DNA of 64,000 bases from contig OZ237759.1 in NCBI GenBank assembly GCA_965178125.1, positions 372,001 through 436,000 on the forward strand, given 5' to 3'. The notes beneath the pieces are model-generated. The model was not told the origin of the DNA and searched no databases. It was given only the letters and a program-made list of their open reading frames with translations. This document shows, one piece after another, positions 1 through 64,000 of this stretch. Every line of letters begins with the position of its first letter. Positions within the stretch are counted from its first letter, which is position 1. The stretch is from Bilabrum cf. latius (taxonomy: Eukaryota). The translations under genes and the position numbers were made by a program.

Positions 1-883
1 CAAACACGTCCTTGCCCCCTCGGTACACCACCAGGTTGCAGTCTCCCTGCATGCGCAGCTCGACCCCCTCGCCCGCTTTCAAGGCATCCCCGGCCCGCAG
101 CACCTGCCCCGGAGACAGCACGTCGCGGTCGGTCACTTGGTGGTATGACGATTGCAGGGCCCCTGCATCGCATTGCAGACTGTGCACGTCCTCCCGCACC
201 TCCAGATCGTAGTAAAAGTACCCCGCACGATTCGGAAGGTGCGTCAAATATTCGGTGCTCCATAGCAGCTGCGCGCCTTCCTGAAGGAGAACGGCAACAC
301 TGTCCCCCTGGACCAGAAACGTGTCGACTTTTGGTGTGAAGACAGAGGATTGCACACGCCAGAGGTACTTACCTGTATCCGTGTCGATGATGGCCAGGTC
401 TCCATCCGTGCTGCACGATGCATCGGTCAAGATCAACGCACAGTGGTTGGCCTGCTCCGAGCCGTCGGAGTTGCCCGAGTAGAACTAGTCCCCACTGGGA
501 TGGCCAATACTGTCATACTCTCCATAAACGACCAGCTTGCAGTCAGCCCGGAGCCACACCCTCGTCGGACCCTTGGACAAGGCGTTATCAAGCATGGTCA
601 TGGCGGAATGTAGAATCTCGCCCCTCCGGAGTCTGTCGCCCTCAGCCGGCTTCCTCGAAGCCAAGGCCTTGACATCGCAAGAGTACGTGTCAATTTTGTC
701 AATGTTCAGGAGTGCCTCCCACCTGGTGCGGCTATGTTGCCTGCTGCTGGCGCGGACCGAGGCCAACGACGTAGATCTAGAGCCAGCGCTGCGAAGGTGC
801 TGCTGGCCTGCTGCTCGTCGCCCGTGCACAGTTACCGCCGAGCAGGCGGCGAGAGCTACCAATATTGTAACGATTGATTGCAT
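1..883 (-). CDS. Secreted bulb-type (B-type) lectin repeat protein, 3'-truncated by the window edge
   Basis: ATG at 883 with a hydrophobic signal peptide. The frame continues through TAG at 485-487 to MQGDCNLVVY (QxDxNxVxY motif) at the edge. Collinear paralog of 34853-36508. Confidence 0.8.
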
Positions 884-1407
884 CCCTATAGATCTGAGGT
901 TGGTGCAACCGTTGTGTTACTTCACTGCAGTGGGCGGCAAGGAAGTCGCGAGTGGCCGCCGCGCCGCGCCGGCGGCACTGGCAGCGGAACCTTCAAGTTG
1001 GGCTGCGGCGGACGGCGGCCTTGTACGAGCCAAACTTTCGGCTTGGGCCTGGGAAAACTTCGTCCAAGCATTGCATTTATATTCAAACAAGATTTGCCGC
1101 GATGTCAGAGATCACGCCCAAGCGGAACTCTCGGCTCGGGCGCGGTTAAAATTTATAAACACAATCGGCTTGGGCGAACTTGTACCAGATCAATTCAAAA
1201 GTTTGGCTCGTGCACGACCGCCGTTCGCCACTGACAAGGCTCCGCGGCGGCGCCCCGTGGCAGCGGGGGGTGGGGCGACCTGACGCGCACTGCGAGTAAA
1301 TAAATACTCACAAAGTAACGCAACCGGTGGCAGTGGCTGCGCATCTGCGGACGAGTTCTAAAGACAAACTTGTTGATCACATACAGAAAGCCACTGCCCC
1401 GCCATAA

Positions 1408-4400
1408 TCACCGGAGCTTCGCCATGGCCGCCTGGACCGCCCCGGCAGCTCCCTTCTTGCCGTTGCACCTCCCTGCGAGGTAGCTTGTCGCCTTGGCTCC
1501 CAGCAGCCGGATCTCATCCCTGTGGCCCGCCAGCTTGGTGGCCATGCAGGCGACCACCAGGGCAGTGACCCATACGCTCCTGACATCCTCCTTGCTGAGC
1601 CCTCCCGCCCAGGGCGCGGCAGACGGCACATCTGCGAGGATCGCCTTAACCGCTCCCATGTCTCTGACCATGAGGATTGCGCGCAGCTGCTCGTCAGTGG
1701 CCACGAAGGACCCGTCGGCCTGCTGCGCCTGCACCACCTGGTCCAGCGACCTTGCCACCTCCGCTGCACTAGGCCCCCCCGCGGCCCCCTCCTCCGCTTC
1801 CTCCTCCTCGGCCTCCTCGATGGCATCGTCAGTGTCGTCCTCGTCCAGCGCCCCGCCGCGGGACAGCCGGTCCGCGCTGGCCACCGAGCTAAAGTCGCTG
1901 TGGTCACTGCCGGCCTCGGCCACGGCCATGCCGTCGGGGATGGCAGCCGCCCAGCTTCCGCCCAGAGCCATCGAATCCAGCTCTGCACCTGCTCCTGCCC
2001 CTGCTGGCGCCATGCCCGGCCTAGACAGAGCTACTGGCATGTCCCTGTGTCTGCCCTTGGTCTCAAGCTCTGCTGTAGCCGCCATGGGCTACATTGCTGA
2101 AGCTGGCATGCCCCTGGATCTCGCCTTGCTCTTCTTCATGCTCCTGGGCATGGCCCCAATCGCCATCGCCTGGCTCACCGCCACCTCGCCGCGTGCACCA
2201 ACTGAGTACTTCTCCCGCCCTCCTCCTCTCCTCCGTTGAACCTCCCGGTACCCCCCAAACAGCTGCTGCTGCTGCTGCTGCTGGGCTGCACTGGAAGAGC
2301 TCGAGGGGTGCTGCTGATGCTGCTGCTCGGCCTTGGGCTTTACCTTGACCGTCTTGAGCGCATCCGCGAGAGCTCCCTCCACCGTACGACCGACGGCGAC
2401 GATGGAGGTCTGCGAGGTCACGATCCCAGCCGCCAGCGCCAGCTCCAGGGCCTGACGAGTGAGGCCAGGGGCACCGGTCCCCGCCTCTTTGGCACTGGCT
2501 TGCAGTTCCTTGCACACGGCATACGCCGCCGCTGCAACCACCGCACCGGGGCCAGGGGGCGCCCCCTCGCCCTCCGCCTCTGGGGGCACCCAGCCCTCGG
2601 GGGCCGATTCCTCGGCCAATGCCGCCGCCGCAGGTGCAGCTTGCCCCCCGGCTTTTCCAGCCTCCACGCTTGCGGCCACTTTGTCCTCTTTATCGCCGGC
2701 CTCGGCGCCGCCTTCCGGCCCTCCACCAAACAGAGCGTCAAAGTCGTCCTCTTCCTCGCCCGCCTCGGCCGCCTTGTCCAGCGCGGCCGCGGTGGCTGCC
2801 GATTCGGCGCCCAGAGACAGCTGCACGTTGTTGTTGCTCACGAGCGCCTCCGCACCACCGTGCCCTGCACCCGACGATGGATCGCTCGCGCCTCCTGCCG
2901 CAGATGCACCGGCACCATCGCCAGCTGGTCCAGCCAGCCTCGCGTCCACCTACCACTCCAGCGGGCCGTCGGGGCCCTGGGCAGAGACCTTGACCGTGGC
3001 AGACTCGGGGAGCGAGCCCCCGTCCCCGGGTGTCTTGAGGATAGCAAACAGCTGCAGCCGCTGGCCAGCATACACCGCCTTGTTGGTGCCTGCCTGGTAC
3101 TGGATGAACGGCGCCAGCTCGCCCCAGTCCACGTTCAGCCCGGTGATCCCAGGGAACAGCACCCTCTGCATGGCCCGCGCCACCACGGGCTGCAGCCTGG
3201 TCTTGTCGCGCACCATCTCGGAGGCACCCTTGGAGGCATCTGCCACTCCCTTGACCAGAGCTTCGGAGGCGCCCGCGCCGATCCCGATCGTGAACACGCG
3301 CACGCCCAGACGGTCCTAGAAACCACCCGCGGCGGCCACCAGCTCGGCCGTGTTCCGCACTGCCCCGTCGGTCAGCAACACAACCTGCTTCGACCTGTTT
3401 TCGTGCACCTCTGGAGGCACGTCGGCCAGACCGCTCCCCGCTCCGGGCCCCGTCCGCCTGCCTCCCCTGTGTCCAGGTCTCGGGGCACCCCTCATGCGAC
3501 CGCTCTTGTGCTCCTTGCCGAAGCCCATCCTCAGCTCCCCGCTCTCGCCCACCTGGTCCAGAGACAGCGCGCCCGCTGCTACCCGGAGCGGCGTCAGGAT
3601 CCGCGTGCCTCCCAGGCTTGGCTTCATGCTCGCCACGAATTTGCGTGCTTTGGCCAGGGCTGCCTGGTCGTACGGCCTCGCTCCCTCGTGGAAACAGGGC
3701 AGCACCTTGGACCCGAAGGCCAGCACCTGGAAGGTCGCAGAGGGCGGGAGGGCTCTAAGGGCCAGCTGAAGGGTGTTCTTCATCTGAGACATGCGGCCCT
3801 GGTTCCGCATGCTTCCGCTGCAGTCGGCCACGAACGTCACCTCGGTGCGAGGCCCATTGGCGAAGCCCGCGCCTGGCGCAACGTTGGGGACTAAGGAGAG
3901 GCCGAGCGCGGCCGCGGGCGTGGAGGTAGGGCCGCCCTTGGACTTGACCGAGGTCGGCCACGTCTCCACCGCGGTCTCGGGGGCGCAGGCCGCACTCGTC
4001 ACAGCTCTGGCGCGGTAGTCCGCCGTGGCCCCGCTGCGGGGAGGCTGGAAGCGCACGAGGGCCACTTTGCCCTCGTCCAGGATGCGAGTCTCGGCGCCTG
4101 CCACCTCTACCTTGACTTCGGTGATGGGGGCCGCGGAGCGGAACCGCATGGTGACCTGCGCGGCGCCCAGCATCTCGCCCTCCTTCCCCTTGGCCTCTGT
4201 GTCCTATGCAGCGGCCGAGGCGGCGGCGGCAGGCTCGGGCCCGGTTGCCTCGTCCTCCTCTTCCTTCGCCGAATACCGAGGAAACAGAGCCACTGGGACC
4301 ACTGCTTCAATTCCAACGCCTCGCAAGTTTGTAGAGCTTGCATTGAAGCCCGAAACGCCGCATGGCGCGGCGTACTTGACCACGACGGTCGCCTCTGCGC

Positions 4401-5153
4401 CTGGCTCGAGATTCCCGAGGCTCATTCGGAACGTGTCCGACGAGTCAGGACTCGCCTGCGGGAAGCTAGTTAGTCCAATCAATAAATGGGAGCAAAATGT
4501 TTTCCAAATGGGGTCCAGCGCGCGAGAATCACCACAAACACCGTGCAAACCGGCAGTCGGAAGCTCGCTTGCCGTGCGACTTGCGATTCCGACAGCTTGC
4601 ACGTGATATTACAATCGCAATTCCTTTGAGATAAGGTAACTTGCTGCTAAACAAGCCGTTGTTACGTGGATCGTATGGTACAACCGCGTTCTTGGATGAA
4701 CAAGGCGATTGATTGCTTGGTAGCCAAGCACCCCGAGAACAAGCTCAGCTTGGATGCACCATGGACTTGAAAGCGTATTTTTGTGCCGCCATGTAAACTT
4801 ACTTCGAGCAATACAGCCTACCGTCCGGAGGCGATGCTGTCGTCGTATTCATCTGCGGCTGCCTCAGATCCCTTCACCACACCAACGACGGTTCGACCTC
4901 CCATCTTGGCCAGCAGCCCACACAGGGACGCGTCCTTGATCATAGGAAGCTCAGCATCAATCTCAATCGCAGTCTTCTCGTCAGAGTTGGACACGGTATA
5001 CGAGCATGTCAGCATCGTCATGGATCCCACGACATCCGCGAAGATCTTGTACTTTGCAGGCTGAACTTCCTCTCGGGGTGCAGGAACCGCTGGGATTCGG
5101 CCAGCGTCACCCTCTGCAGGCAGTCGTTTGGCTTTGAGCGAAAATTTACCCAT
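1408..5153 (-). CDS. VIT + von Willebrand factor A domain protein (VWA5A/BCSC-1-like)
   Basis: VIT-like EYDDSIASGR*AVLLE|ASPDSSDTFRMSLGNLEPG; vWA motifs FVADCSGSM, LLTDG, VFTIGIG. Intron about 4456-4802. In-frame TAGs at 4818, 4204, 3316, 2950, 2089. Ends TGA at 1408. Confidence 0.85.
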
Positions 5154-5285: not shown

Positions 5286-6885
5286 TCAAAACGGCATGTG
5301 GGGGTCATAGCACACGCCCCCTTTGATGTCGCACGCCTTCCCCGACGGGCAGCAATGCTGGTGGTCACCGCAGTTGGCTGCATCCGCCTCTGGGCAGCAG
5401 GCCCACATGCCTGTGGTCAGCTGGGCGCAGGTGTTGCCGGCTGGGCACGTGGCCACACCATCCGGGCAAACCACGGCCGCGCCTTCATGTGATACATCCG
5501 TCGCGATAACGATTTCCTCCCCGCTGGGATCGGTGTCAGCCTCGTGGAACAGTGCAGGCTTGGAGCAGTCCGCCCCAGCCCACCCGCTCCCGCACTGGCA
5601 TGCAGTGTCGTTCAGCACGCAGCGCCCATGCCCAGAGCACTTGCTCGCCTGACACTGACACCGCTCCCGCAGCACCCCGCTGGCCCACGGCTTGAACGTC
5701 CCCTGGTAGTACTCCCTGAGGGCCTTCATGCCCACCCCCCCCACCGCGGGGTCACCCCACACGAGCACCGCAGCAACGGAGGGAAACTCGAACGGGATCT
5801 AAAAGTCCGCCTCCAGGTCCTTGATAGGCAGCCAGAATGGCCCCGCTCCCGCCCTCATCCAGCTGAAGGGCACCACCTCCAGCTGACGACCGGTGGCCTG
5901 CAGGGTCTGCTGCACGATCCTCTCGGACTCGTTGAGCAGCTGTCGCACGAAGGTGGCGTTGTTGGGCCCGTAGGGAATCTTTGCCTTGTTCTTCAGGTAT
6001 AGCACAGGAAACAGCGCATCAACCTCGTTCCAGAGCCACTGCAGCGCATCGTTGTGAGCCTGTTGCGCGGGACCCGCCTCCGGGCTCTGGTAGCTGTGCC
6101 ACAGCCGGGCCACCGTGTCGTAGAAACCCACCTTGGCACTTGGCCTCATCTTTTTAATCGTCTGGATGGTCGTGAGGTAGTACTCCCTCGATGCAGACTC
6201 GAACTGCGCCTGCGCCGCCAGCTGCACTCTGGTCATGTTGCTCCTCCAGTCGGGGTGCTGGGCGAGCACGATCTCCATCGAGGCGTTCATGTAGCCCCCG
6301 AACAAGAACTTGTCCCACACCGGCTGCCAGCCCTCATAGTCCAGGCCGATGTAGCCGCTAAAATCCTTCGGCAGCGTCATTTCAACGGCTCGCTGCAGCT
6401 TTTCGACGTGCCCGGAGAGGCCGCCCGTCAGGTTCTGAGGGACGCCGCCGTTGTCGAAGCGGTAGGGGTTGCCCGGCGTGCCCTCGCCGTACGCTGAGGG
6501 GTGCGTGCCGTACGTTTGGGCACCCACCCAGCTGGCTTCGGCTCCGTTATCAGTCCCAGTGTATCTGCGTAATCGTACAATAGCGTTCGTTTGCAGCTAC
6601 ACGTTCACGCACGAGCTGTCTAGTGAATGCAAATGCCGGCTTGACTTACCCGCAACCACCAGCCTGTGTTGCAAACGCCGGTATCCCAGAAAAATTTAAG
6701 CCGGTATTTTGAGGCTCAAAGTTGGTGTTCATGATGAAAGATTGGAACGCGACCCTGCCATCCGGACAAATCGTTGGCGGTGAACTGGCTATGTTGTCCG
6801 CCCCTGTGAAATCAATCAATGACGTATTCTACGCCAACGACAAGGATACAACAGTTACTAGCGTGAGCACTGCTTGCTTCCGCAT
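5286..6885 (-). CDS. Secreted hyaluronidase-like GH56 protein with EGF-like and granulin domains
   Basis: Signal peptide MRKQAVLTLVTVVSLSLA followed by TAG (6829). Intron 6565-6649. LPKDFSGYIGLDYEGWQPVW resembles the GH56 catalytic DxE motif; CSGHGRC; granulin Cys pattern WACCPEADAANCGDHQHCCPSG. TAG at 5799; TGA at 5286. Confidence 0.8.
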
Positions 6886-7021
6886 TGTGTATTGGCGTGG
6901 CGACCACGAAACACAGAGACTCGGAGTGCGACAGTTTGCTCCGATCGAATACGCTGATGCCTCGTTCGCAGAACGGATCTTCGGTCGCCACTCGGCACTC
7001 ATTAACACACCTACTACAACC

Positions 7022-9732: not shown

Positions 9733-12700
9733 TCATTCGTCATCAGCTGAATTGCCAGAAAGGCTCCATAGCTTGCCGTACAGCTCGCACCTGCCGAGCA
9801 ACTCGTCGTGCGTGCCGGCGTCCACCACGCTCCCTTGGTCCATGACCACGATCTGGTCACTGGACGCCACGGTGGCCAGCCTGTGCGCGATTTGCACCGT
9901 GGTGAATCCCACGTGCCCCTGCTTCGCCTTGGTGGTCAGCTCCTCGATCGTCCGCATCACCACCTCCTGTGACCTGGAGTCCAGCGCCGACGTGGCCTCA
10001 TCAAAGATCAGCAGCTTGGGCTTCCGGACCAGCGCCCTGGCGATGCAGATCCTCTGTTTCTGGCCTCCGCTCACCTTGGCCCCTGAGGCGGACCCCACCT
10101 CCGTGCTGTACCCCTCCGGCATGGTCCGAAGGTTCTCCACGAACTCGTCCGCGTTGGCCAGGCGGCACGCATCTCGAACGGCGGGCAGCACCCCGTGCGG
10201 GGCCCTCTCTTGCCTCCACGCGACCAGCTCACCCGGCGACGTATCCACGGCATCATCACCACCTGTGGCGTCGTCATCACTCCGAGGCCTCCCGGCGGCC
10301 TTGCCATCGTCCCCGGCAGGCATGCCGTACGCGATTGAAGACCCTACCGTGCCCGGCAGAAGCACTGGCTCCTGCTGCACGAAGCCGAGGGCCGCCCGCA
10401 GCGATGCGGTGTTGATGGTCTGTACGTCCATGCCGTCGAAGAGGACCTTGCCCTTCTGAGGGACGTACTGCTTCAGCAGCAGCTTCACGATGGTGCTCTT
10501 GCCCGAGCCGGAGGGTCCCACGAGCGCGTTGACCGTGCCTGCCTTGAGGGTCAGGCTGACGTTGTTGAGGACCCATTCGTTGGGACGGGTGGGGTAAGCC
10601 AGACTCACGCCCCGGAGCTCCACCTCCCCCCTAACCTCGGCGGGGTTGAGCATGATGCCCTCCTGGCTCAAGGGGTCGATGGGCTTGACGCGGTCGATGA
10701 GGGAGAAGATGCTGCGCTTGGCGGCCTCGGCGTGGGAGGCGTCCGTCCCCTGCGAAGCCGCTGCCCCTGCGCCAAAGGCCCCCCACATGAGCGTGAACAT
10801 GGCTGCCAGCAGGTCGCCGATCGCGATGTGTCCATCCCGCACGAAGATGGCCCCGACGTAGAACACCACCGCGAATACGGCAAACTGGGCGCACTGACTG
10901 ATCCCGTAGCTGAATCCAGCTGTCCATGCCCTCACTTTGAGCGGCCCCATGGCGGCTTCTCCTGCCTTGCGGAACAGGTTCAGGATGGAGCGGTGCATGG
11001 AGAACGCGTGCACCGTGCGGATGTTGGCCACAGCCTCGCCGGCGACGTCACCGCTGCCCTCGTACTCGCTTCCGGTGCCGTCCGAGCCATCCTTGTTTGC
11101 CTGCTCTTCCAGCATGCCCGCCACAGCGAGGGCGGGTGCCAGCGCCAACACCAGGAGAGTGATCCTCCACGACCTGGAGAATGCCAGCGCCACTCCGATC
11201 ACCATCGAGAAGAGCGTCTGCACGTACAGGGCATATTTTTCTCCTAGAGTAGCCCGAATCGAGGCGCAGTCGCCTGAGAGACGTGCCGCCAGCCGCCCCG
11301 TGCTGTTCCTCCTCTCGTCGAAGAAGCTTGGTTCGCAGCGCAGGATCGCCTCGAAGTAGTCCACCCGGAGCCTCCTCGTCATGCGCTCCCCCACTACGCC
11401 GAACGCCCAGAACTGGCCGAGCTGGGCGAAGATCGACACGACACCAACACACAGGAACACAATCATGTACGTCAAAGACTCGCGCTCGAGAGTCTCGTCG
11501 TCCTTGTACAGCACCTCCACCAGATCGCCGAAGCCGTATCCAATCAACGGAAACACCGCTCCGTTGAACGCGGCGCATGCGAGTCCAAGCAGCAGAATGG
11601 GCCAGTCGTCGCGCGAGTACTCCCACACGCGCCACGCCCCAGGGTCGGGCAGCTTCTCATCTTCCTTGCGCAGCTGCTGGTCAAACTCATCGTCGGGAAT
11701 GACCTCGTCGCTGGCCTCAAGCTTAGCCGTTGCCTTCGGGGCGTCGGAGCTGGCGTCGTCGGACTGCACGTCCCCAGGTGCCACGCGCCGGGGAGACTCC
11801 TTGCCAGTGTGACGAGAGGACGATTTGGTGGTGGACACGTGCACCAGAGCAGTGCTTGCAGACGCAGCGCCCGTGTCTGCATCATCTAGGGTGGTAGAAC
11901 CGGCGGCTCCTCCGACGGATGCTTCGCTTCGGCCGATGTCACTGCCGCTCTTCACAGCCGCAGGCCCGATGTCGCTCTCGCTCTCGCTGATGTTGTCCCT
12001 AGCAGACGCTCGGTACAGCCTGTAGTATTCCCCGTCGTGATCCTGCATGAGATCCTCGTGGTTGCCCTGCTGCACGATCCTCCCGTGTTCCATCACCACG
12101 ATCTTGTCGGCTCCCTTGACCGTGGACAGCCGGTGCGCCACGATCACCTGGGTGAAAGGCCGCCCTTGTTCCCTGGCGTCCCTCCTCATGGAAGCGAATG
12201 ACTCCTGCAGCATCTTCTCGCTGTGGGTGTCCAGGGCACTCGTGCTCTCGTCGTCAAGGAACACGCGAGGTGCCCGGATGACGGATCTCGCGATGGCGAT
12301 CCTCTGCTTCTGGCCCCCGCTGACGGTGCTCCCGCCCTCTCCCACGTACGAGTCGTAGCCCTGCTTGAGCTGCGTGATGAAGTCATGCGCCACCGCCACC
12401 TTGGAGGCGTGCTCCACCTCGCTCTGAGGGATGCCGTCGGCGTTATTATCGGCGGATCGCCCGAATTTGATGTTCTCTCCGATGGAAGCCATGAAGAGGG
12501 CGGGCTCCTGCTGCACCACCCCGAGCACGCGGCGGTACGAGTTCACGTTGAGGCTCCGGATGTCCTGCCCGTCCAGCTGCACCTGTCCCGACTGCGGGTC
12601 GTACAGCCGCTGCAGCAGCTGCAGTGCGGTGCTCTTGCCAGACCCGGAACCGCCCACGAGCGCCACGGTCTCGCCCGGCTGGATCTCGAGAGAGAACTTG

Positions 12701-14444
12701 TCGAGTACTTTGTGCTCTGGTCGGGAGGGGTAGGCAAAGGTGACGTCCTTGAAGCTGAGCGCGCCCCTGACCCTGTCCAGGCCCACCTTGTTCCCCGCTT
12801 CCGAGTCCGTGTTAATCTCTGGGCACCGCTCCATGAGCTCGATCACCATGCCCACCTTGGTCCTTGCAGTCGAAAACCCGGCGATGTTTGGTGCGATCTG
12901 CGCCAAGCTAAAGACGCCTATAATGACCGAGAAGAGCACCCTGGTGGCTGTCCCGCCCGAAGTGCACTCGGTGGGCGGCAGCGGCTGCCTACACGCCTCG
13001 CTGTTCTACCGGTCCTGCACGACAAGCCAGCCCCCGAACCAGTACGTCACCCCGAACGTCACGCAGAACATGCAAAAGAACGTTCCCTGACCCATGCCGA
13101 AGTACATCTATTTCTTAATGCCGGCATCTTCGGCCCCTTGCAGCTGGTTGCTGTACCTCTGCAGCTCTGTCTTCTCCCTGCCGAAGGCAGCAACGGTGCG
13201 GATTGCGGAGATGGCCTGCGTGGCGACCTGTCCCGCCCGTGCGTACGCCGCTGACGCCTCTTGCTCCAGGCCGCCCCTCGACCACTCCACCAGGCTGCCG
13301 CCGAGAATGGCCACGGGAAGGGTGCCGAAGACCAGGAGCGCCATCTTCCAATTAAAATAGAAGCCTGCTGCAATCCCTATGAAGAACGAGGTCCCGTTGT
13401 GGATGCCCTGGCCCAGCTTGGAGCCGATGCCGTTGCGGATCTGTATGGTGTCCTCTGCCATGGTGCCAGCGACTGCTTCCGCGGGATGCGTGTCGTAGTA
13501 CTCTGCCGGCTGGCGGAGTAGGGCTCTCAAGTAGTCCTCCCGGATACGCATGGTCTGGTTGTTCGCGGCAATCATGAACAGAGTGGTCTCTGCGTACGAC
13601 GCGACGAAAGTGGCCGCGCACACGATACCGAACAGGCTCGATAGGAAGCCAACATCCTCCAAGAGTTCGTCCTGCAATGAAAGAACTGATAACAAATGGA
13701 CCGTTTGTATTTGGCGTGACGGGTTCGTGCGGTCTTCTTCGCCGTCACGTTGCTGAGTTGCTCTTTCGATGACCCGCGATGAGCTATAAATTCTCGTCGG
13801 CAGCTTTAGCAACACAAAGCAGAGAAAAGGCCAGCTATTGTTCCACATCATTACATCAATGATCTTAAGTGTTGCGCCTTACCTGATTTCCAGCGATTTG
13901 GTCGATCATGGAGCCTGCGCCGATGGTGTCAAAGAATGGCGGCAATCGAGTGCGCAAGATAGGTGTGTGAATTTTGACCACCGATTTCTGGAGGTTAGTT
14001 GATTAAACTGTCAAATGGATTGAGAATGTCCTGCTCGTGAGTGGTAGCGATCGTGCGGTCTTGTCGAATGACATCGCCAGCAGCTGCGGGGGCATCGTGG
14101 GCCTGGCAGCTCGCCACAACCGCGGCCATGTCTCACCGAGCAGTACAGCCATCCCTGGAAGCGCAGCGCCATTGACCTGCATATAGTAGGGTATAGGTAA
14201 TAAATACACTGCTATGATGCGGACCAACCATCCGCTTGGGCCTTGTAGGGGCCAGTTGGACCCGCAGCCTGCGCATAGCCGCAGCTAAACCCGCAGCCTG
14301 CAAAGCCGCTCGAGGCCGTCTCACCAGAGCGAGTACGAAGCCGATTGACATGAGGACAGCATCAAGCGAGTCTGCCCATTGGAAGAGTTCGCAGACAGTA
14401 GCGCCTCTTGACTTGGCTATTCCTCCAGTTTCTTTCTCTGGCAT
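9733..14444 (-). CDS. ABCB1: Full-length ABCB (MDR/P-glycoprotein-like) transporter
   Basis: Two TMD-NBD halves with Walker A (GGSGSGKS, GPSGSGKS) and VSGGQKQRI signatures. N-terminal ELFQWADSLDAVLM; three 5' introns. In-frame TAGs at 13108 and 13006; TGA at 9733. Confidence 0.93.
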
Positions 14445-20277: not shown

Positions 20278-21876
20278 ATGGAGCACCAATCGCCGCAGAT
20301 TAGGCTCGAATCAGACCCTTTGGTGAACGGAAGTCCGATTGGATCACTCATGCCAACTGCAAGTGGGGGTGATATCGGCACTGAAGATGAGTTTGAGGAT
20401 TTTTCTGAGGATGAAGGCAAGCATGATGGTAGTGCAACAAAACAGCTGGCCACTAATGGAGGCAGTGGAGGCGAAGGGTAGGTACGCTCTACATCTGAAG
20501 AGACGCGTGGCCCTGCCAGCAAATCCGCAGCGTTGGCCGAATCTGGTGGCAACAGTGTAGGCGATGGTGCGCAAGCACATCAAGGCAAACCAGCAGGCGC
20601 GATGCCGGTGCATTGGCGCCCATCGTGGCAGCGAGTGGAAGCGCACTTGTCCCTGGCCAAGCAGAAGAAACAGGATGGCAACGAAGCGTACAAGAACAAC
20701 CGGGTCGACGAGGCCATACTTCATTACTCCTCCTCTGCATCGGCCGTCCACGCACTTGAAGGGGTATTAGCCGATTTAGAGAAGGCTGGTGTCGGCCATC
20801 TGCCGTCGAGACCGGATGAGGACACCGCCCTCGAATCCATCGAAGAGGGCAGGAGCTGGCGTTCTCCCGCTCGGTCCATGGACGAGACGCCATCTGCTGG
20901 TGCGTCTGCGCTCGGCCCCTCCCTTGCATCTCCTGTGGAGGAGGCCATCGCGAAGGAGATGAAAGCGACAGATGGGTCCTCGGCAGCCGCGGATGCGCCC
21001 ATCACAGCGGCGGCAAAGGCACAAGGAACACCCGATGCCGCAGAATCTGGTGCGGGGGCACTCGCGGCGGCATCAAAGACGAGTGCCGGGACCGGCGCCG
21101 CGCAAAAGCGTAGCGGAACCGGCGCCGCGCACGAGGGCCGCACCAGCGGCGAGTACCTTCAAGAGCTCCGCTCGATGGTGGCCAAGGTGTACGCCAACCG
21201 GGGCCAGGTGAAGATGAAGAAAAAAGAATGGGCCGAGGCCATAGCGGACTGCGACGAGGCACTGGACCGCGACCCCCGGTACTTGAAGGCGATGCTGCGG
21301 CGGGCCACGTGCCTGGAGCGGCTGGAGCAGTGGGAGGACGCAGTGGAGGACTGGCAGGACGTGCTGAAGACTGACCCGAGAAGTGCCGAGGGCCGCGCGG
21401 GGCTGGCTCGTTGCGAGTCCTAGAAGAAGAAGAAGGAAGAGGGCATGAAGGAGGAGATGGTGGGCAAGCTCAAGGACCTCGGGAACATGGTGCTGGGGAA
21501 CTTCGGGCTGTCCGTGGACAACTTCGAGCTCAAGTAGGACGAGAGCGGGGGGTACAGCGTGCAGTTCAACCAGAATCCGAATCCGAAGGGGGGCGGCGGC
21601 AAGGGAGGTGACGGGGGAGGGGGAGGTGGAGGTGGAGGGGCGGCCAGCGGCTCTGGTGCCAGAGGGGGAGCGGGTGCAGAGGCGAAGACCGGTGGTTCTA
21701 GCGCTGGAGCTGGAGCCGGTCCAGGAGGCAGTGGGTTCAGTTTCTAGTTCGACACCTCTAAGGGCAGTGGAGGTGGGGCACCCGGCGATGGCTCCAAGTC
21801 GGGGACATCGTACCCTTGTCCTCACGAAGAGTGGGAGGAAGAGGATGAGGACATTCTGGAGGATGATGATGTTTGA
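20278..21876 (+). CDS. TTC1: Tetratricopeptide repeat protein 1 homolog
   Basis: Three TPRs ([25 protein letters not shown]) plus the TTC1-type C-terminus [36 protein letters not shown]. TAGs at 20479, 21421, 21535, 21745; TGA at 21874. Confidence 0.85.
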
Positions 21877-24840: not shown

Positions 24841-24841
24841 C

Positions 24842-25605: not shown

Positions 25606-25835
25606 GTCTCATCGCCCCACGAGCGGCGCCGGCGGGCTCCGGCGCCCATCGCGCCGCGATGCGGGGCCTACTATCGGCGGGCGATGGGCACCGATGATCA
25701 GCGGCCCATCGGGCAGCGATGATCTTCGATGCCACCGAATCATATCGCGGAGCGACAAAGGGTACGAATTATCGCCCCGGCGATGGGCTACGATCGGTCG
25801 CCAGCCGACCGGCGCCGCGCAGGGATTTTGACGCG
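25606..25835. repeat. Second CATCG/CGATG-rich palindromic block
   Basis: Same motif vocabulary as 22056-22320. Ends in TTTTGACGCG, the reverse complement of CGCGTCAAAA at 22056. Confidence 0.6.
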
Positions 25836-25901
25836 AAAACTCTATTTTCTCTCTCTCTCTCTCAAGCGCGTCACGAATCTGAGCGTCTTCTCCCAGAACA
25901 C

Positions 25902-29895: not shown

Positions 29896-30040
29896 GGGCG
29901 AGTTTGCCACTGTGTGTGCGTGTTTCCTCATGTTTGCGTGTAGACAAAGCTAGTCTGACTACATGTTAAATAATGCCATCGTGAATTTCACAATAGTAAG
30001 CTTTTCACAGTTGAGGCAACCAGAGCGCCCAGCAGCCACG

Positions 30041-40000: not shown

Positions 40001-40209
40001 ACTACGTACGGAATCATTCCGTTCCGGATGTGTTCGCCTCTGATCCGACAGCCGGGCTCTTCATTGACAAAGCCGATCCCGGTCGCAGTGACGTCGTAGC
40101 CTCCCCGTACAGACCCCCTGGTTGGCGACAGCTCCGTGACATTCACGGCTGCAGCTGAATGCAAGAAGTACATAGCTACTGGCATCACCGCTTTAAGAAG
40201 TCCCGACAT
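37087..40209 (-). CDS. Secreted IPT/TIG + glycoside-hydrolase-like barrel + CBM-like protein (paralog A)
   Basis: Signal peptide; IPT-like LSPTRGSVRGGYDVTATG; KDHPALAFWYISDD; C-terminal ANPSFE...VWIDDF. TAGs at 39328, 38110, 38104, 37255; TGA at 37087. Confidence 0.75.
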
Positions 40210-40321
40210 TTTGCAGCAAGTTGTTGGATCGAGACCAACCATTTGGTTTAACGAGGTTCCGCAACATTTCGCGGCGCCGACGATCTTCGCAAGTCGTGTT
40301 TTCATCATACAATTATCGATC

Positions 40322-43300: not shown

Positions 43301-43465
43301 AGGGAGGCTGCGCCTGCGTTTCAGTGGGTGCAGCTGAAGGCAGATGGAGTGTCGTTCGGTCCTGACTTTCCAGGGGCTCCGGGCGTGGAGATGTGGATCT
43401 CAGGGGCGGGCAGGCTTTGGGTCGATGATTTCGACATCGTCTTTGCTGGGTTCCAGGGCGATTGA
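40322..43465 (+). CDS. Secreted IPT/TIG + glycoside-hydrolase-like + CBM-like protein (paralog B)
   Basis: Collinear with paralog A (KDHPGLGMWYISDD, LWVDDF). TAGs at 40403, 41798, 42443, 42659, 42722, 42746; ends TGA. Confidence 0.78.
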
Positions 43466-46325: not shown

Positions 46326-46629
46326 CTCTAGGTGGCACGAGTATGAAGCGATTATTCAAGAAGACTCTCTCCTTCAAACCAAGTGAAACCTAGCGGAGAA
46401 GTGCAAGATATGTCGAAGCCGCCCTCGACGCGCAGTGCGGATTTACCCAGATGCTTGCAACTGCAACTACCCGGATTGCAACTGATTGGATGCGCACCAC
46501 GCACCAGCATGGCACCCTTCACAACTATTATCATATTATCGTATCGTGAGTTGCAGTGCGGGCAAGGCAAATGAGCAGTTCACTTGTCTAAGCACAGAAC
46601 CCGTGCAGGTCGCCAGGTCGCCTCCGTCT

Positions 46630-49973: not shown

Positions 49974-51360
49974 TCAGGACAGCTTCTATCTGACCACCCT
50001 GTCCGCCTCGGACCCCGCATCCAGCACCCCTGCATCGAACACCAGCGAGGTCAGCCACCACACCGCAAAGAACACAGGAATCAGCACGGACAGGTACTGC
50101 CCCCAGCCCTGCAGAAGCATCTCTGACACAGATGGTCGTACCCACACCGGCTGTGGCGAAACGCGGGCGTACATGCGCATGGAGAACGCCCGCGTTCTCC
50201 TCAAAGCGGGGAAGGCAGCCTCGGCAGCAGCCGCCGCCGTCCCAGTCAGCGCAAGGCCCTCCGCACCGTACGGACGGGGTCCAGACCCCGTCTCTGGCGT
50301 CCACGCCACATCAGGCTAGAACTAAACGGTAAAATTCCTGTCGTGGTACCTCCTGAGCAGCTGCTCGGGGCTCACCTCTGCCTGCCCGTACACCCTCGCA
50401 AAGTCCACTAGGTCGTTGCCTCCCGTGGGATCCAGGAACCCATCCGCTACCCTTAGAGGTTGCCTCTGGCGAAGCACCAGCTCTCCGTCAGCGTACAGGC
50501 TCGCAGCGGGTCCCCCCGCCTGCGCGTGCATGACCATGAGCGCGTCGGTTCTCAACCGCGCCCTGTTGTGCAACCGCACCCGCAGCGGGGCGGCGGCGGA
50601 CACGCCCGTGATCACTTCGTCTCGCTGCATCGGAATGCTCGCCTCAATGAAGAGCGCCTCTGCGCGGGCGTCGCCTCTAGAATCCTCTTTCCGCAGCTGC
50701 GCGTGATGCAATCAACAGGAGCGATAGTGGATGCAATCGAAAGGAGCGATAGTGGGGAGCACGGGTGAGTGGGATTGGACGCCGCGAGAGACAGGGGCCA
50801 GCTGTTTAGATGCGGTGGCTTAGCATAGCTAGCAAAAGGGCCCATAAAGCTGCGCGCAGCCCGCATTGCTAAATTAAGGCCAACTTGGCTGCACCCGGTA
50901 GCGCGCCCTTCTCACACGAACTGTCATCGGCCGGAGCTCAACTCCGAGCACATCGGTCACGTACTCGCGATTGCTCCATCCTACCTGGAACGGAACTCTC
51001 GCTGTAGGTCCGCCTACAGCATCAGCGGTAGTGTTGACCACCCTGTATCCGTTTGCTAGCACAATCAAGTCATCCGTGGCCACAATATCCGGCTGCTCAT
51101 ACTACACGTACTCCCGCAGCCAGAACCGTCCGGAGAAGGAAACAAGATACGCTGGGATTACAATGATAGCTACTATCGACAGGACGCAAAAACAACAGGG
51201 CAAGCTCGCTTCCGAGGCGCGATACCGCCTAGCTAGTGGCTGGCAGTTTACCTGCGAAAATACCGGTGGTTTGGGGGGTCAACTTCGGATTTCTTCTACG
51301 CAAAGCATCCTATGTATATATATGCATATAATTTTACTATCTACTTACAGTAATCGGCAT
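49974..51360 (-). CDS. TMEM231: Ciliary transition-zone protein TMEM231
   Basis: MPIT|VNCQPLARRYRAS, FWLREYV*YEQP, DGELVLRQRQPL, RRYHDRN and WGQYLSVLIP; two introns; four TAGs; TGA at 49974. Confidence 0.85.
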
Positions 51361-57720: not shown

Positions 57721-60700
57721 ATGAACCATGATACGATTGGTGAACTATTTGACAGTATCGACACGAACCAATGTGAGTTGATTCCTTTGAATATAGCGCA
57801 GACGAGAAATGCACGGACCGCAACTTGCGTACCGGCCAATCGTTCCACTCTGTACTCAACGGGTCGCAGCCGGGTATGTCAGCCGCGCTGAGGCGCGGAA
57901 AGGTCTTGCCGACTTGAAAGTACCATATACATCATCCTAGCTCGATGCCTTTGTTCGTGGGCTTGACCACGATAACGACGGCATCATTTCCCGGGCTTAG
58001 TTCATCTCGTTTGTGCTAGTTCGCCAGGAAGCGATGCGCAACGCATTCATGCAGCTTGATACCAATGCGGACGGGAAAATTACCCGCAAGGATCTCCGCG
58101 CCGTTGCGGAGCGCCTCGGGTACCAGCTGTCTGCGAGCGAGCTGGACCAAGTTCTTGCAGTCGCCGATACCGATGGTGTCGGTGGTGTGAGCTTCGAAGA
58201 GTTCGCCTCCCACCTGCTGCTGGTGGGAGACAGTCACCCGGAAGGGACTTTCGAGCAATGGCTGGCCCACAGCGCCGTGGTATTCGAGGCAGACACGGTG
58301 GAGGTCGTCGCCGAGGGCACAGCCGACGAGCCCTGGTGGATCGCTCCCTCTTCCGGGGCACTCGCAGGCATGTGCTCAAGGACGCTCACGGCACCTTTCG
58401 ACCGTCTCAGGACGGTGCTCCAGGCCTGGGACATGCAGCCCATGCAGGCGCCCGCCCCCGCCGGAGCCACTGGCGGTGGGACTGGCACTGCCGCTCATAG
58501 CCACCCGGTTGCAACCGGTTCCGCGCCAGGCCGGCCCCCGCTGGCAGTCTACTCACCGTACCACCCCCTGGCAGCCCGAGCACTTGCTCGAGGAGCAGAT
58601 GCTCCTGTGCTCGCTTCTGCCATGAGAGAGGCGGCCCGCGCTGAGCACAGGCCCTCCCGGCCCACCGGTGCTTACTCGTCACACCGGGATCTCGCGGACT
58701 CGTCACACCTCTCCGACGGACGAGGCACCCAGCACAAGGAGGGCATGCACGCTGCCTCGGGGAGCAACTCCGCGAGCAGCAGCAAGACGGCCGCCGCCGC
58801 GGGGTCGCAAGAGGCCGCGCCGCGACCGCCCAGACGGAGACGAGCCGCCGCGGCGACCGGCCTGCCGCCCGAGGCCCTGGAACCTCAGCACCACCAGAGC
58901 CACCGTCCCAGGGAACACATGAGACCCGCATTCGAGGGCACACTACCGCACGGGGATGGCAAGGGCCGATAGGGTACAGGCCACGACCCAGGGAACACAA
59001 AGGACGCCGCTGCCTCTGGCGAGCGCCCCCGCGCCAGGAAGCGCCCCCGGCGGCCCCCCGCAATGCACCTGGTCAACCCGGTGGATAGGGCGGTTGCAAC
59101 CGGCAGGCTGGAGCGGGCCCCGGTCGCGCCTGTGGCGGGCTGGTCCCACCACTCTGCCGTGGGCGATGGTGTGACGAGTGAGGCCGGTCTAGGGCAGGCA
59201 GCAGCAGAGCTATCCCGGTCCAGCGGTGCGCTGGCTCGGGAGGCGGCTGCTAGTCGGGCGGGAGGGGTGGCCGGCGGGGTTGGGGCTGATGCTGGTGCTG
59301 ATGCTGGTGCTGGTGCTGGCCGCCCTGGGCTGGGCGTGGGTGCCGGAGACGCGAAGATTCCCCGTGCCGGTGACGCTCAGCTGGCATGGCGAGGGGGTAT
59401 TGAGACGGCGGGGCTGCAGTCCAGGAGGGCCGGGGGGCGAGGAGCTGCGGGGATGGGGCTGGGGGCGGCGCACCACCATGCAGTGCAACTCGAGGGCGAG
59501 TAGGCGTGGAGGCCCGCGGCCCATGCTGGCGGTCATGCTGGCACGCAGGTGTACCGCTTTGGTGCTGGTGCAGGGGCAGGGGGCGGCGGGGGAGACAGCT
59601 TCACTCAGCTGCTGCGCCAGCTGCAGATCGAAGCAGAGAGCGGGGCACTGTCCGCAATCGCTGTTTCTAGGGGACACGGGGCCGGTGCAGGACACCACCA
59701 ACACGGCCAGTACGAGCACAGCGGGAATGGAGCCAAGCAGCACGGGAATGGGCTGCGGCATTTCGGCGGCTCGCATGGCATGGAGTGGGAGATCGTCTTT
59801 GGACAGGAGGCGGGTGTGGGTGCATCCTCCTCCTCGTCCTCCTCCTCCTCGACTTCTCACCGAGGTGGTCATGGAGGCGTGGGTGCATCCACCGGTGGAG
59901 CTGCCCACCGCGAGTGGCTGCATCAGCGACACGGGCATTCGGAGCAGGGGCACGGGCACCACAGGTCTGACCAGTGGCTCCCCCGGTCGTCCAAGGAGGC
60001 CGCTCGCAAGGCAAAGAGGCACGGGAGGGGCGAAGGGGGCACTCCGTGGAGAACTAGGCCAGCGAGCCACGGGAAGAGCTACGATGCCGATGCGGTCGCA
60101 GAGAAGGAGGACAGGAGGGCGAAGAGGTCGGGCAGCCAGAGAGGCATCCCGAGGGGCCAGCGGTCCTTCCCGCACGTCCAGCCGTCGCAGGTCATGCCGG
60201 AGGGCATCCCAAGGCACCTGCCTCGCCCTCAGGGCCAGGTGGCTGCCCAGGCACTGGCTCTGGAGGTGGCCAAAGCGGGTAGCCAGGCGGCTAAAGCGGG
60301 CCATGCCGCAGCCCATGCAGCGGCTCGCACCAGCGCCGCGATCCCTGCGTCTCGAGCGACAGCCGCCGCCGCTGCTCAAGCTGCCACCAGCGCCGCAACC
60401 GCCGCGCAGTCAGGGATCACCGACGCAGCGGTGTGGGTGCACCAGCAGTCCGGCATCAAAGGTTTCTGGCGCGGCAATGGCGTGAACGTCCTGAAGATCG
60501 CGCCCGAGACTGCGGTCCGGCTGGGCTGCTTCGAGCAGCTCAAGGGCATCGTGAGCCATGACCCCGACAACATCAAGCCACCGGAGCGGTTCCTGGCCGG
60601 TGCGCTGGCAGGTGTAGTGAGCACACTCATCATATACCCCCTTGAGGTGATCAAGACGAGGCTGGCGCTCTCCAGCTCGCAGCAGTACGCGAGCGTGCTC

Positions 60701-61183
60701 CACATGGTGCGGTCGATCCAGCAGAGGGAGGGGTGGCGGGCCCTCTACAAGGGCATGGGGGCCTCCATCATGGGCATTGTTCCCTACAGCGGCACAGAGC
60801 TGATGGTGTTCTCTCTCCTTCGAGACGCGTGGTCGGCACGGTATCCTGATAGGGAGCCCGGGGTGCCCACTCTCCTCATGAGCGGGGCTGCGGCCAGTGC
60901 CTGCGGGCAGCTGGTGAGCTACCCCTTGCAGCTGGTGAGGACCCGGTTGCAGGCGCAGGGGATGAAGGGGCGCCCTGTGCTTTATAAGGGGGTCTTGGAC
61001 TGCTTTCGAAAGACCCTGAAAGCTGACGGGTTCCTTGGTCTGTACCGTGGGATCGCCCCCGGCTTCATGAAGAGCATCCCCTCGTGCATGATCAGCTTCA
61101 CCGTGTACGACTCGGCGCGGTCGCAGCTGAGGAGAATGCAGCCCAAAAAGGGAGGCGGCAAGAGGGGGAGGCGGCAGTACTGA
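57721..61183 (+). CDS. EF-hand Ca2+-binding mitochondrial carrier (SCaMC / ATP-Mg/Pi carrier-like)
   Basis: Four EF-hands, then carrier signatures PFDRLR, PLEVIKTR, PLQLVRTR and FWRGNGVNVLKIAPE. One 5' intron; TAGs at 57938, 57988, 58970, 59501. Confidence 0.88.
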
Positions 61184-62143: not shown

Positions 62144-62377
62144 CAAGAATGGTTGGCTTTGTCCTGAGAGTATTGAATGGTTCGGGTCAACAGTCGGTCA
62201 CTGCGGTGCAGTTGCAGTTCGTGGTGATGATGATCCCTCGAAGCTCTTATGGCGCCGAGATAGCTCAAGTGGAGATTCATACAGCATAAACAATATGATG
62301 GTTTACATACAACAAGTTCCTGCAGCTCTTCCTTCCGATCCCGCCCCTCACTACTAGTAGGGCAAGTAGCACGCTCG

Positions 62378-64000
62378 TCACCCTACAACCAACCGCGACT
62401 TGGCCCGGTTTTCGGGTGAAAATCTGTCCATGCTCTGCATGTGCTTCAGCGCACTTGCCTGGGCCATCCTCTCCGCGTGTCTCTGGGTCGACTGCCGCCG
62501 AAGACCGCTCACTTTCTGGGCCTGCCCCGCCATGTGGCCATGGATCCCAGCGGCGGTCCCACTCCCAGGCGACCCCTCAGGCTGCGACTGGCCCGCACCT
62601 GCACCCGCACCCTCGCCGCTGCTGCTGCCGCTACTACCTCCGATTCCGATTCCGAGTTGTCTCCCCGCCTCCGCCTGCCTGGCTCGCTCCGCCTCCAGCT
62701 GTGCCCTCAGCTCAACGTACTAGGCCCGGAGCGCTGCCGTAGACGCGTCCCCCGCAGCCTCGGGGGACTGGTGCTGCGGAACATCCTAATGCGCGGCGGC
62801 GTTCCGGGTCCCGCCGTGCGGAGGATGATACTGCTGCTGGCCTGCCAGATAGCCTGCCGGTGCGTGCGGAACATGCTGGTGCGCGGCGCCGGCCCCCGGT
62901 GCAAAGCTCTCCGGTGCCCTTGGTGAGAACACGTAGGTTGCAACCGGTTCGGCCTGCGGCTGGGGCGCGCCCCTAGGCTCTAGTGGGGGCTGGGGTTGGG
63001 GGTGGGGGTGAGATGCATGGAGCAAGTGCTCGTGCTCGCTCTGCTGAGAATGCTCGCCCTACCGTGCCGGGTATTCCGCTGGCGCAGCATGACCCATCCC
63101 TTCGTTGTCTCCTCCCCGGGTCCCTGCACCTCCATGCACTCCCGCCTTGGCACCAGCTCCTCGTCCTTGCCCCTGCTCCTGCCCCTGTCCCTGCCCCTGT
63201 CCCTGCCTGTGTTCATGCTCGTGATCGTGCCGGCCACCCGAGCTCGCTGTCCCCCGGATCTCTGCGGCGGCCGCTCCGGACCGTCTGCGGGAGGCCTCCG
63301 TGCTGGCCAAGTAGGATCCGGAGCCGGAAAACTTGCCCTGGCTCTTGGATCCGGCGCCAGAAGCCAAAGAGCCGGCGGAGGCGCCTTTTGGCACGAGTTC
63401 CGCGCTGGGCGCCTGCAGCAGAGAAGCGAGGTCTGGCGAGGCAGAGCGGCCGGTGTTGGCACTCGTCACACCGTTTCCACTATTCATCCTGCTTACCATG
63501 GGCCCCCCGACGGCGGCATCGACCTGGCTCCTGAGCGCGCCCACCATGCCGAGCAGGTCCGCTGTGCTGTCAGGGGCCGGCGCGCCTGTGGAACGTCCAA
63601 GCTCGCCATCCCCCTGCTCCATCTCCTCCTGCTCCTGCTCGTCCATCTCGTCGTCGGACAGCGTCCTCTCCCCCCCCTGCCGCAGCAGCCCGCTCACCTC
63701 CGCGCTGTACATGGACCAGGCCGTGCCCACCAGGACCTTGCTGTCCCTCCCCGCGTGGCTGTACTGGTGGTGGGCGGAGGACGACGCCGGTTTGGACACC
63801 CCGGCTGCGTGCCTTTGGCCAGGGGTCATGTCGCCTGCGCGCATGGCTGCCGTGGACTGCTTGGGATGATGATGATGATGCGTTGCGAAACCGGTCGGTG
63901 CGCGGCGCCCCGGAACAGCCCTCCCAGCACCGTTGAGAAACTCCACCGACGGAACCAGCCCGCCGGAGCTATTGCGCGGCGCCCCTCCGGAACCGTCCAG
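62378..64000 (-). CDS. Hypothetical low-complexity protein, 5'-truncated by the window edge
   Basis: Single frame through TAGs at 63059, 62786 and 62720 to TGA at 62378. Confidence 0.6.

Follow-up and report, generated by a model that had tools for sequence, protein, structure and literature searches.

In-frame UAG codons in a GC-rich eukaryotic nuclear genome segment are very probably read as glutamine, with genes terminating at UGA

The window (the whole 64-kb stretch of DNA that was analyzed) is ~60% GC, with a GC3 of 0.80. The gene identities proposed in the first-pass annotation are confirmed by Pfam matches to ABC_membrane/ABC_tran, VWA/VIT, TPR, TM231, Mito_carr, FAD_oxidored, and methyltransferase families. 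The features on which the analysis draws are the following.

1408..5153, minus strand: VIT-VWA gene (Pfam VIT, 2e-11, and VWA_3); exon 1 spans 4803-5153 and contains a TAG (4818-4820), with a GTAAGT intron after it; further TAGs, at 4204, 3316, 2950, and 2089, are in the ORF that lies downstream (1408-4608)
5286..6887, minus strand: GH56 hyaluronidase, EGF, and granulin gene (Pfam Glyco_hydro_56, 1e-33, and Granulin; PDB HYAL1, 9.5e-27); TAGs at 5799 and at 6829-6831, the latter in what is probably a first exon encoding a signal peptide
9733..13878, minus strand: ABCB full transporter (Pfam; PDB ABCB1, 2e-236); TAGs at 13108 and 13006; stop TGA
20278..21876, plus strand: TTC1-like TPR gene (Pfam TPR_1); TAGs at 21421 and 21535 in coding context and at 20479 and 21745 in low-scoring context
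25698..29895, plus strand: PB1 and FAD-dependent oxidoreductase gene (Pfam PB1; FAD_oxidored, 1.6e-63); exon 1 ends at 26356 and exon 2 begins at 26463; TAGs at 27808, 28003, 28741, and 28837; stop TGA
26357..26462, plus strand: spliceosomal GT..AG intron of 106 nt, its splice joint present in contigs of runs X5 and X6
37087..40488, minus strand: TIG-domain paralog A, TIG_A (Pfam TIG); TAGs at 39328, 38110, 38104, and 37255; stop TGA
39881..43465, plus strand: TIG-domain paralog B, TIG_B, with a signal-peptide-like start near 40322; TAGs at 40403, 41798, 42443, 42659, 42722, and 42746; stop TGA
43773..46355, minus strand: pectate-lyase-like and WSC gene, 860 amino acids; no TAG; stop TGA
49974..50711, minus strand: TMEM231 exon (Pfam TM231, 1.8e-18); TAGs at 50322, 50316, and 49986
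57791..61183, plus strand: EF-hand and mitochondrial carrier gene, SCaMC-like (Pfam Mito_carr, 1e-65, and EF-hand_7); TAGs at 57938 and 57998; the first carrier repeat is split in two by a ~2.2-kb segment in which several frames are open

When TAG is treated as a sense codon, nine ORFs of at least 800 amino acids are obtained, compared with two under the standard code, two with TAA as sense, and four with TGA as sense. Long ORFs delimited by TGA and TAA number 18 and contain 62 TAG codons, with at least one TAG in 17 of them; the pectate-lyase-like/WSC gene has none, so TAG is not found in every gene. Twenty-seven of the 62 are in a clearly coding context, which we define as a neighborhood of ±25 codons that scores as coding in that frame only, and all three TAGs of the TMEM231 exon are in coding-like context. 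The best-supported coding segments, 5515 codons in total, contain 17 TAG (3.1 per 1000 codons), 0 TAA, and 0 TGA. A test that is independent of ORF definition gives the same picture: among all stop triplets in the six frames, those flanked on each side by coding-like sequence in one and the same frame are 16 of 895 TAG, 0 of 390 TAA, and 0 of 1604 TGA. The first-pass annotation had reported about 70 in-frame TAGs in intact genes that lack frameshifts and in-frame TGA or TAA. Such TAGs are indeed present inside homology-supported genes, far above chance; the full-length alignments contain no frameshifts, and the frames are interrupted by TAG alone. The figure of 70 itself was inflated because it took in intronic, upstream, and low-complexity TAGs (for example, one in the intron that follows 4803).

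Homologous proteins indicate which residue these codons specify. At oxidoreductase TAG 27808, 80 of 94 homologs have Gln. The columns at 28003 (62 Glu, 30 Gln) and 28741 (65 Thr, 27 Gln) are more mixed, and their Glu and Thr majorities come from distant, mostly bacterial homologs; the seven closest among the homologs listed have Gln at all three positions. TTC1 TAG 21535 is opposite Gln in 4 of 4 homologs, and TIG_B TAG 42746 is opposite Gln in the close relative P0143. Homolog residues are available at 17 of 20 TAG sites, and the column log-odds summed over these 17 are +20.2 bits for Gln, −11.3 for Thr (the next best), and −20.0 for Glu, with Leu, Ser, and Tyr all negative. With locally close homologs only, Gln has +20.1 bits and the next residue, Ser, has −8.1. 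Some sites do not fit Gln, namely ABCB 13108 (23 Gly, 13 Ala, 2 Ser, and 1 Tyr in 39 homologs) and TTC1 21421 (Lys, Lys, Met, and Lys), and columns are variable at oxidoreductase 28837 and at TIG_B 41798, 42659, and 40403. ABCB 13006 is within an insertion relative to homologs. A PDB search with the VIT exon gave one weak match, the PARP4 VIT domain (E value of 0.005), with Gly at the place of TAG 4818, a result that speaks neither for nor against the proposed VWA5A counterpart, GHQAFLLE.

The two TIG paralogs, which are 56% identical over 1081 positions, permit a comparison of codons. TIG_A TAGs 39328, 38104, and 37255 are aligned with CAG in TIG_B, and the fourth, 38110, is aligned with TAG; at well-conserved paralog sites the codon aligned with TAG is CAG every time. 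Four sequence contexts singled out earlier, ANP-TAG at 27808, NFELK-TAG-D at 21535, GR-TAG-AVLLE at 4818 in VIT-VWA exon 1, and SLSLA-TAG at 6829 after a signal-peptide-like start, are correctly positioned, and the first two are the Gln columns described above. Glu is canonical at position 12 of the EF-hand loop, and a TAG at this place in the carrier gene had been raised as a counter-signal. This observation is real, although it is one site against many and its position is 57998-58000 rather than 57988. The loop, DHDNDGIISRA-TAG, with TAG at its 12th place, was read directly from the sequence; Pfam did not call it as an EF-hand, and in a PDB search with the EF-hand part this first loop was unaligned to any real EF-hand.

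The same TAGs are found in contigs from four runs belonging to three studies, and no other letter is listed at any TAG site. A contig of run X6 (record 16) is spliced at GT..AG from 26356 to 26463 and matches all of 26463-28138, TAGs 27808 and 28003 included, with 0 differences. Run X5 also contains the spliced form, and its records 12, 13, and 14 cover 10 more TAG sites with 0 differences. The joint is absent from X1, and by coordinate arithmetic removal of 26357..26462 joins both ORF frames in phase. Contigs of X5 to X7 have strongly uneven depth, unlike X1; these are assembled contigs whose RNA nature is only guessed (X5 is flagged "probably DNA"), as none of the runs listed is recorded as RNA, and stretches that the contigs leave uncovered carry no weight here. 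If the spliced X6 contig is RNA, which is a guess, it suggests that UAG is kept in mature mRNA, neither edited nor spliced out.

A metagenome scan with one protein query recovered a single related locus, L001, a contig of 3.9 kb that is 55% GC and has ~60% protein identity to the window. Its two TIG genes lie head to head; the 701-codon gene has 6 in-frame TAGs and the 611-codon gene has 5, and neither has an in-frame TAA or TGA. Two of these TAGs are opposite CAG in the window, and one is opposite GAG (Glu) in TIG_B. Judged by these reading frames, the use of UAG as a sense codon is common to the window organism and the related organism.

Since the TAGs lie within intact and apparently expressed genes, at positions where relatives have Gln, the most likely reading is that UAG specifies Gln in the nuclear genes of the window and that these genes end with UGA, and we hold this with high confidence. 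The original proposal of UAG as a Gln codon is thus borne out by homolog columns, paralog TAG/CAG pairs, retention in the spliced contig, and a relative that also has in-frame TAGs. On this reading, UAG makes up ~7% of Gln codons in the confident coding segments (17 TAG versus 193 CAG and 23 CAA). The source would be the nuclear genome of an aerobic, cilium-bearing, GC-rich, intron-poor eukaryote in which UAG is an ordinary Gln codon, UGA ends genes, and UAA is probably not a sense codon. The one basis for calling this organism cilium-bearing, or a flagellate, is the TMEM231 gene in the window, which suggests a cilium. By analogy with such codes elsewhere, a tRNA-Gln with anticodon CUA would decode UAG, and eRF1 would recognize UAG poorly or not at all. 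A tRNA gene scan found none within the 64-kb window or in L001, and eRF1 is not among the genes identified by Pfam in the window. An Rfam scan detected only a U3 snoRNA.

That the TAGs are untranslated, through pseudogene decay, systematic C>T assembly error, RNA editing to CAG, or hidden introns, has in its favor that part of the TAGs first listed sit in introns or noncoding stretches. We regard it as extremely improbable: frames with full-length alignments are broken by TAG and never by TGA or TAA, identical TAGs recur in the four runs, the spliced contig retains two of them, and the 60%-identical relative bears TAGs at different places. That UAG stands for Glu, Leu, Ser, or Tyr rather than Gln, on the model of lineages in which it was reassigned to another residue, is also very improbable. 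Glu would be favored by the EF-hand-like loop at 57998, the L001 TAG opposite GAG, and the Glu found in most distant homologs at 28003, whereas the summed log-odds are against all four residues, the 27808 column has Glu in 0 of 94 homologs, and only CAG faces TAG at well-conserved paralog sites.

The status of UAA is a closer question. TGA closes 18 of 18 long ORFs and TAA closes none, as would be expected if both UAG and UAA specified Gln, with UGA as sole stop and TAA unseen in genes merely through high GC. This excess is only mildly unexpected otherwise, because TGA outnumbers TAA by ~4:1 in frames at large. A code with both UAG and UAA as Gln is described as the commonest variant (PMC5304391 and PMC11687900). 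We nevertheless consider it unlikely here, since no in-frame TAA was found in the 5515 confident codons, in the both-flank test, or in the L001 ORFs, a result of low power at high GC. On the assumption that TAA:TAG follows CAA:CAG, the expected number of TAAs is ~2.0 for the window and 3.0 for L001, and the chance of finding none in the two combined is ~0.007. In addition, a TAA at 22610 closes a coding-like ORF on the minus strand (22613-23098) that is of unknown family. Because no in-frame TAA was found, we lean toward UAA not being a sense codon. A further alternative is a context-dependent code of the Condylostoma type, in which UAG would be ambiguous, being sense within genes but also ending translation close to the 3' end of some mRNAs. 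In 2 of the 18 ORFs (the B-lectin gene, TAG 36497, and TM231, TAG 49986) a TAG is located 3 to 4 codons ahead of the closing TGA, where ~0.3 such cases are expected for the last five codons of 18 ORFs at 3.1 TAG per 1000 codons, and this makes occasional termination at UAG possible. The other 16 ORFs reach TGA without a nearby TAG, and the homology-supported C termini of ABCB, TIG_A, and TIG_B end at TGA, so we judge an ambiguous UAG to be rather improbable.

Codes that read UAG as Gln are already known, and the present case looks like a further one. Those that keep UAA as a stop, the pattern of NCBI table 15, are described from the fornicate Iotanema spirale and from the ciliates Hartmannula sinica, Trochilia petrani, and Protocruzia tuzeti. 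As in the window, UAG alone is Gln in these organisms, with no in-frame UAA or UGA, and UAG is a minor Gln codon (~7% here and ~8% in Iotanema, PMC5304391). The stop codon is different. In those organisms UAA is the main stop, in 86.9 to 98.3% of genes in phyllopharyngean ciliates with a reassigned UAG and predominantly in Iotanema, whereas every long ORF end seen here is UGA and none is UAA. GC content is also different, at 60% here versus 27.4 to 53.6% across Phyllopharyngea, and a further difference is that the window carries many genes on one 64-kb piece. An anaerobic fornicate would seem ill-suited as the source because of the mitochondrial carrier and complex-I-assembly-type genes in the window. 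UAG is likewise uncoupled from UAA in Rhizaria sp. exLh and TARA phyllopharyngean MAGs (both Leu), Scotinosphaera (Ser), and Oligohymenophorea sp. (Glu), but the UAG residue in those lineages is Leu, Ser, or Glu rather than Gln.

UAR is read as Gln (NCBI table 6) in many ciliates, in Dasycladales/Cladophorales/Trentepohliales, in Hexamita, in Streblomastix, and in Amoeboaphelidium protococcarum. These codes share with the window a stop-to-Gln reassignment and a UGA terminator, and Amoeboaphelidium and the ulvophytes are aerobic nonciliates, as the window organism appears to be; they differ in having sense TAA, of which we found none. TGTAA is the green-algal poly(A) signal, and it is not enriched downstream of the stops in the window, which lends no support to an affinity with green algae. 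The best protein matches are scattered among sponges, Vitrella, a foraminifer, a choanoflagellate, and Cymbomonas, the last of these being among the distant TIG relatives. The oxidoreductase is 59% identical to sponge proteins, ABCB is ~40% identical to proteins of animals, fungi, and amoebozoans, and the best TTC1 matches are 49 to 51% identical to animal TTC1 over 37 to 39% of the query.

Nuclear code changes are rare, and differing fates for UAG and UAA are rarer still. The listings, abstracts, and passages searched yielded no report of a GC-rich nonciliate with UAG as Gln. We raise, tentatively and with more doubt than belief, the possibility of an independent, unreported origin of UAG as Gln in a GC-rich, aerobic, cilium-bearing lineage outside ciliates and metamonads. 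In such a lineage UGA would be the sole practical terminator, with UAA left almost unassigned; in every UAG-only code described, the situation is the reverse, UAA being the main stop. Environmental relatives with ~60% protein identity and the same code would be present in public databases only as UAG-cut fragments. A GC-rich, UGA-terminating case would bear on how UAG is lost as a stop, whether by infrequent use, by GC pressure, or because a tRNA-Gln(CUA) captures it, and on whether eRF1 can cease to recognize UAG when UAA is scarcely in use. Standard-code gene calling truncates the proteins of this organism at every UAG, and the right table is therefore needed for annotation, orthology, and phylogenomics of the lineage. 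Such pieces are already in public collections: the proteins P0145, P0159, and P0146 terminate exactly at L001 TAGs, which is the expected product of standard-code gene calling.

The window has a GC content of ~60% over its 64 kb and carries about two dozen eukaryotic genes, which contain few introns and are distributed over both strands. The features identified by Pfam, and one by Rfam, are as follows:

VIT-VWA protein
GH56 hyaluronidase with EGF and granulin modules
LRR_6 proteins (two)
9733 to 13878, minus strand: ABCB full transporter
class-I methyltransferase (called NDUFAF5 in the first-pass annotation)
Golgi-pH-regulator-like membrane protein (weak match)
COPI-associated protein
20278 to 21876, plus strand: TTC1-like TPR protein
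25698 to 29895, plus strand: PB1 and FAD-oxidoreductase protein
B-lectin repeat protein
37087 to 40488, minus strand, and 39881 to 43465, plus strand: two head-to-head TIG-domain paralogs (TIG_A and TIG_B)
pectate-lyase-like/WSC protein
DUF3429 protein
TMEM231
GT31 galactosyltransferase
EF-hand mitochondrial carrier
second methyltransferase
49558 to 49776, minus strand: U3 snoRNA gene (full-length match to Rfam RF00012 at 54.7 bits), flanked by the genes for DUF3429 and TMEM231

The ~1.7 kb from 23731 to 25517 is open in all six frames and consists of repetitive, charged, low-complexity sequence with E/R/G-rich repeats, for which no family match was found. The first carrier repeat of the EF-hand/mitochondrial-carrier ORF is split into halves by ~2.2 kb of GC-rich sequence (58420 to 60700) that has several frames open on both strands and may be an intron or a disordered insert.

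Under the standard code, the window contains 2 ORFs of at least 800 aa, compared with 9 when TAG is read as sense, 2 when TAA is, and 4 when TGA is. TGA triplets are nearly twice as frequent as TAG, yet reading them as sense yields only these 4. The 18 long ORFs delimited by TGA or TAA hold 62 in-frame TAG codons. We scored their surroundings by codon log-odds, trained on 5515 codons from the best-supported segments, which contain 193 CAG, 23 CAA, 17 TAG, 0 TAA, and 0 TGA codons and have a GC3 of 0.80. The surroundings of 27 of the 62 TAG codons score as coding in their own frame only. The other 35 are in introns, upstream regions, low-complexity inserts, or weakly scoring genes, and the "about 70" in-frame TAG codons of the first-pass annotation is therefore too high for a secure count. 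A flank test that is independent of how ORFs are drawn, in which all stop triplets in six frames were screened for the presence of coding-like sequence on both sides and the absence of TGA or TAA within 30 codons, was positive for 16 of 895 TAG, 0 of 390 TAA, and 0 of 1604 TGA triplets. In-frame TAG codons within genes are real.

The residue read at UAG was assessed from homologs. In the FAD oxidoreductase, the column at TAG 27808 is Q in 80 of 94 homologs (D in 6, N in 5), and TTC1 TAG 21535 faces Q in all 4 TTC1 homologs found, so that both sites stand at Gln positions, as had been proposed from the sequence alone. Among the 94 oxidoreductase homologs, the column at TAG 28003 is E in 62 and Q in 30, that at 28741 is T in 65 and Q in 27, and 28837 lies in a variable loop; at 27808, 28003, and 28741, the 7 closest homologs among the matches listed all have Q. 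TTC1 TAG 21421 faces K/K/M/K in the 4 homologs. TIG_A and TIG_B are 56% identical over 1081 positions, and TIG_A TAG codons 39328, 38104, and 37255 are opposite CAG in TIG_B, while 38110 is opposite TAG. Six TIG_B TAG codons in badly aligned or variable stretches are opposite AAA, GCT, CAC, GCA, GGG, and GGG. Among closer TIG relatives, drawn from an exhaustive protein search of public databases, Q is found at 39328 (P0142 and P0145), at 38110/42443 and 38104 (P0148), at 42746 (P0143), and at 37255 in P0143 and P0147, whereas P0144 has S there and P0166 has A. ABCB TAG 13108 is contrary to Gln (G in 23, A in 13, S in 2, and Y in 1 of 39 homologs), and ABCB TAG 13006 is inside an insertion.

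Column log-odds with pseudocounts, summed over the 17 of 20 sites having any homolog residue (with the paralogs' shared TAG entered twice), give Q +20.2 bits, followed by T at -11.3, A at -12.0, and E at -20.0. When only locally close homologs are used, Q has +20.1 and the next residue, S, has -8.1. A counter-signal had been raised in an EF-hand-like loop, DHDNDGIISRA-TAG, in which TAG does occupy the twelfth place, at 57998 rather than 57988. The canonical residue at this place of an EF-hand loop is Glu. The loop received no Pfam call, and a PDB search gave no alignment to a true EF-hand; this single site does not outweigh the remaining sites. The reading of UAG as Gln is well supported, with Q the sole residue of positive summed score and with the TAG/CAG pairs between the paralogs.

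The top database matches of TIG_B are short pieces of 69 to 424 aa, several of them from one metagenome contig. The matching metagenome contig, L001, from a related organism (3877 bp, 55% GC), has two TIG genes head to head, like the window, in open frames of 701 and 611 codons with 6 and 5 TAG codons and no TAA or TGA. The longer gene is 60% identical to TIG_B; of its TAG codons, two correspond to CAG, one to GAG, and one to GGG/CCG in the window genes, and window TAG 39328 corresponds to CAG in L001. The ends of P0145, P0159, and P0146 coincide exactly with TAG positions in L001, and these proteins are artefacts of standard-code gene calling. This relative shares the in-frame TAG feature. 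The paralogs in the window have near-identical protein stretches despite their overall divergence, and distant TIG relatives are ~830 to 900 aa, one being a Cymbomonas protein. A 58-codon ORF (33683 to 33856, minus strand) ending in ...VVWIDDFEVRYAGTRKSDRS-TGA copies the TIG_A C terminus and is probably a gene fragment.

TGA ends all 18 long ORFs and six more coding-like ORFs from the flank test, including the homology-supported C termini of ABCB, TIG_A, and TIG_B, and we conclude that the working terminator is UGA. UAG may also have a minor terminating role, since two ORFs carry TAG 3 to 4 codons ahead of TGA (36497 and 49986). No sense TAA was seen in the window or L001. If TAA:TAG equaled CAA:CAG, ~2.0 would be expected in the confident codons of the window and 3.0 in L001, and the joint chance of zero is ~0.007, assuming this ratio and whole-length homology-supported ORFs. 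UAA is probably not a sense codon. It may serve as a stop codon; TAA ends one coding-like ORF (22613 to 23098, minus strand) that belongs to no known family. Three further TAA candidates were antisense shadows of TAG sites.

According to PMC5304391 and PMC11687900, UAG=Gln codes in which UAA still terminates occur in Iotanema spirale, Hartmannula sinica, Trochilia petrani, and Protocruzia tuzeti, and UAR=Gln codes (both UAG and UAA) occur in many ciliates and some ulvophytes as well as in Hexamita, Streblomastix, and Amoeboaphelidium. The code is of a kind already known; the dominant stop of the described UAG-only codes is UAA, whereas that of the window is UGA. There is a fair chance that the code arose independently and has an unusual pattern of termination at UGA alone. 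Ciliates and metamonads seem a poor fit with the GC content, long-contig gene density, and aerobic mitochondrial genes of the window; an aphelid, an ulvophyte, or an undescribed lineage is a possible source. Best matches are scattered among sponges, Vitrella, a foraminifer, a choanoflagellate, and Cymbomonas, and TGTAA is not enriched downstream of stops in the window. By analogy with the cases described in PMC11687900, a tRNA-Gln with anticodon CUA would decode UAG while leaving UAA alone, and eRF1 would no longer recognize UAG. A scan of the 64-kb window found no tRNA genes.

We compared positions 26001 to 46000 with assembled contigs from four public sequencing runs, X1, which is DNA-like, and X5 to X7, whose RNA nature is a guess (X5 is labelled "probably DNA"). 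Depth in X5 to X7 ranges from 0 to >1000 across adjacent genes, a pattern that resembles transcripts, and X1 is flat except in the multi-copy lectin region. Contigs from X5 and X6 join 26356 to 26463, skipping 106 nt with GT..AG ends, and X1 is unspliced; the splice joins the PB1 and oxidoreductase ORF frames exactly in phase. X6 record 16 carries this splice and then spans 26463 to 28138 with 0 differences, so TAG 27808 and 28003 are present in the spliced molecule, which agrees with the expectation that TAG is kept in mRNA. X5 records 12, 13, and 14 cover ten additional TAG sites with 0 differences, and no alternative letter is listed at TAG sites in this interval in any of the four runs.

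By far the highest depth in X5 to X7 relative to neighbours is at 30003 to 31336, where X1 is normal; the ORF at this peak (30041 to 31516, minus strand) has no Pfam family match. The PB1 domain and the PF12831 FAD oxidoreductase share one spliced reading frame (25698 to 29895), and the closest homologs of the oxidoreductase, from a mostly bacterial family, are in sponges (55 to 59%). In the B-lectin repeat gene region (34672 to 36672), X1 depth is 10 to 14 times that of the surroundings and several variant contigs are found, which indicates a member of a multi-copy family.
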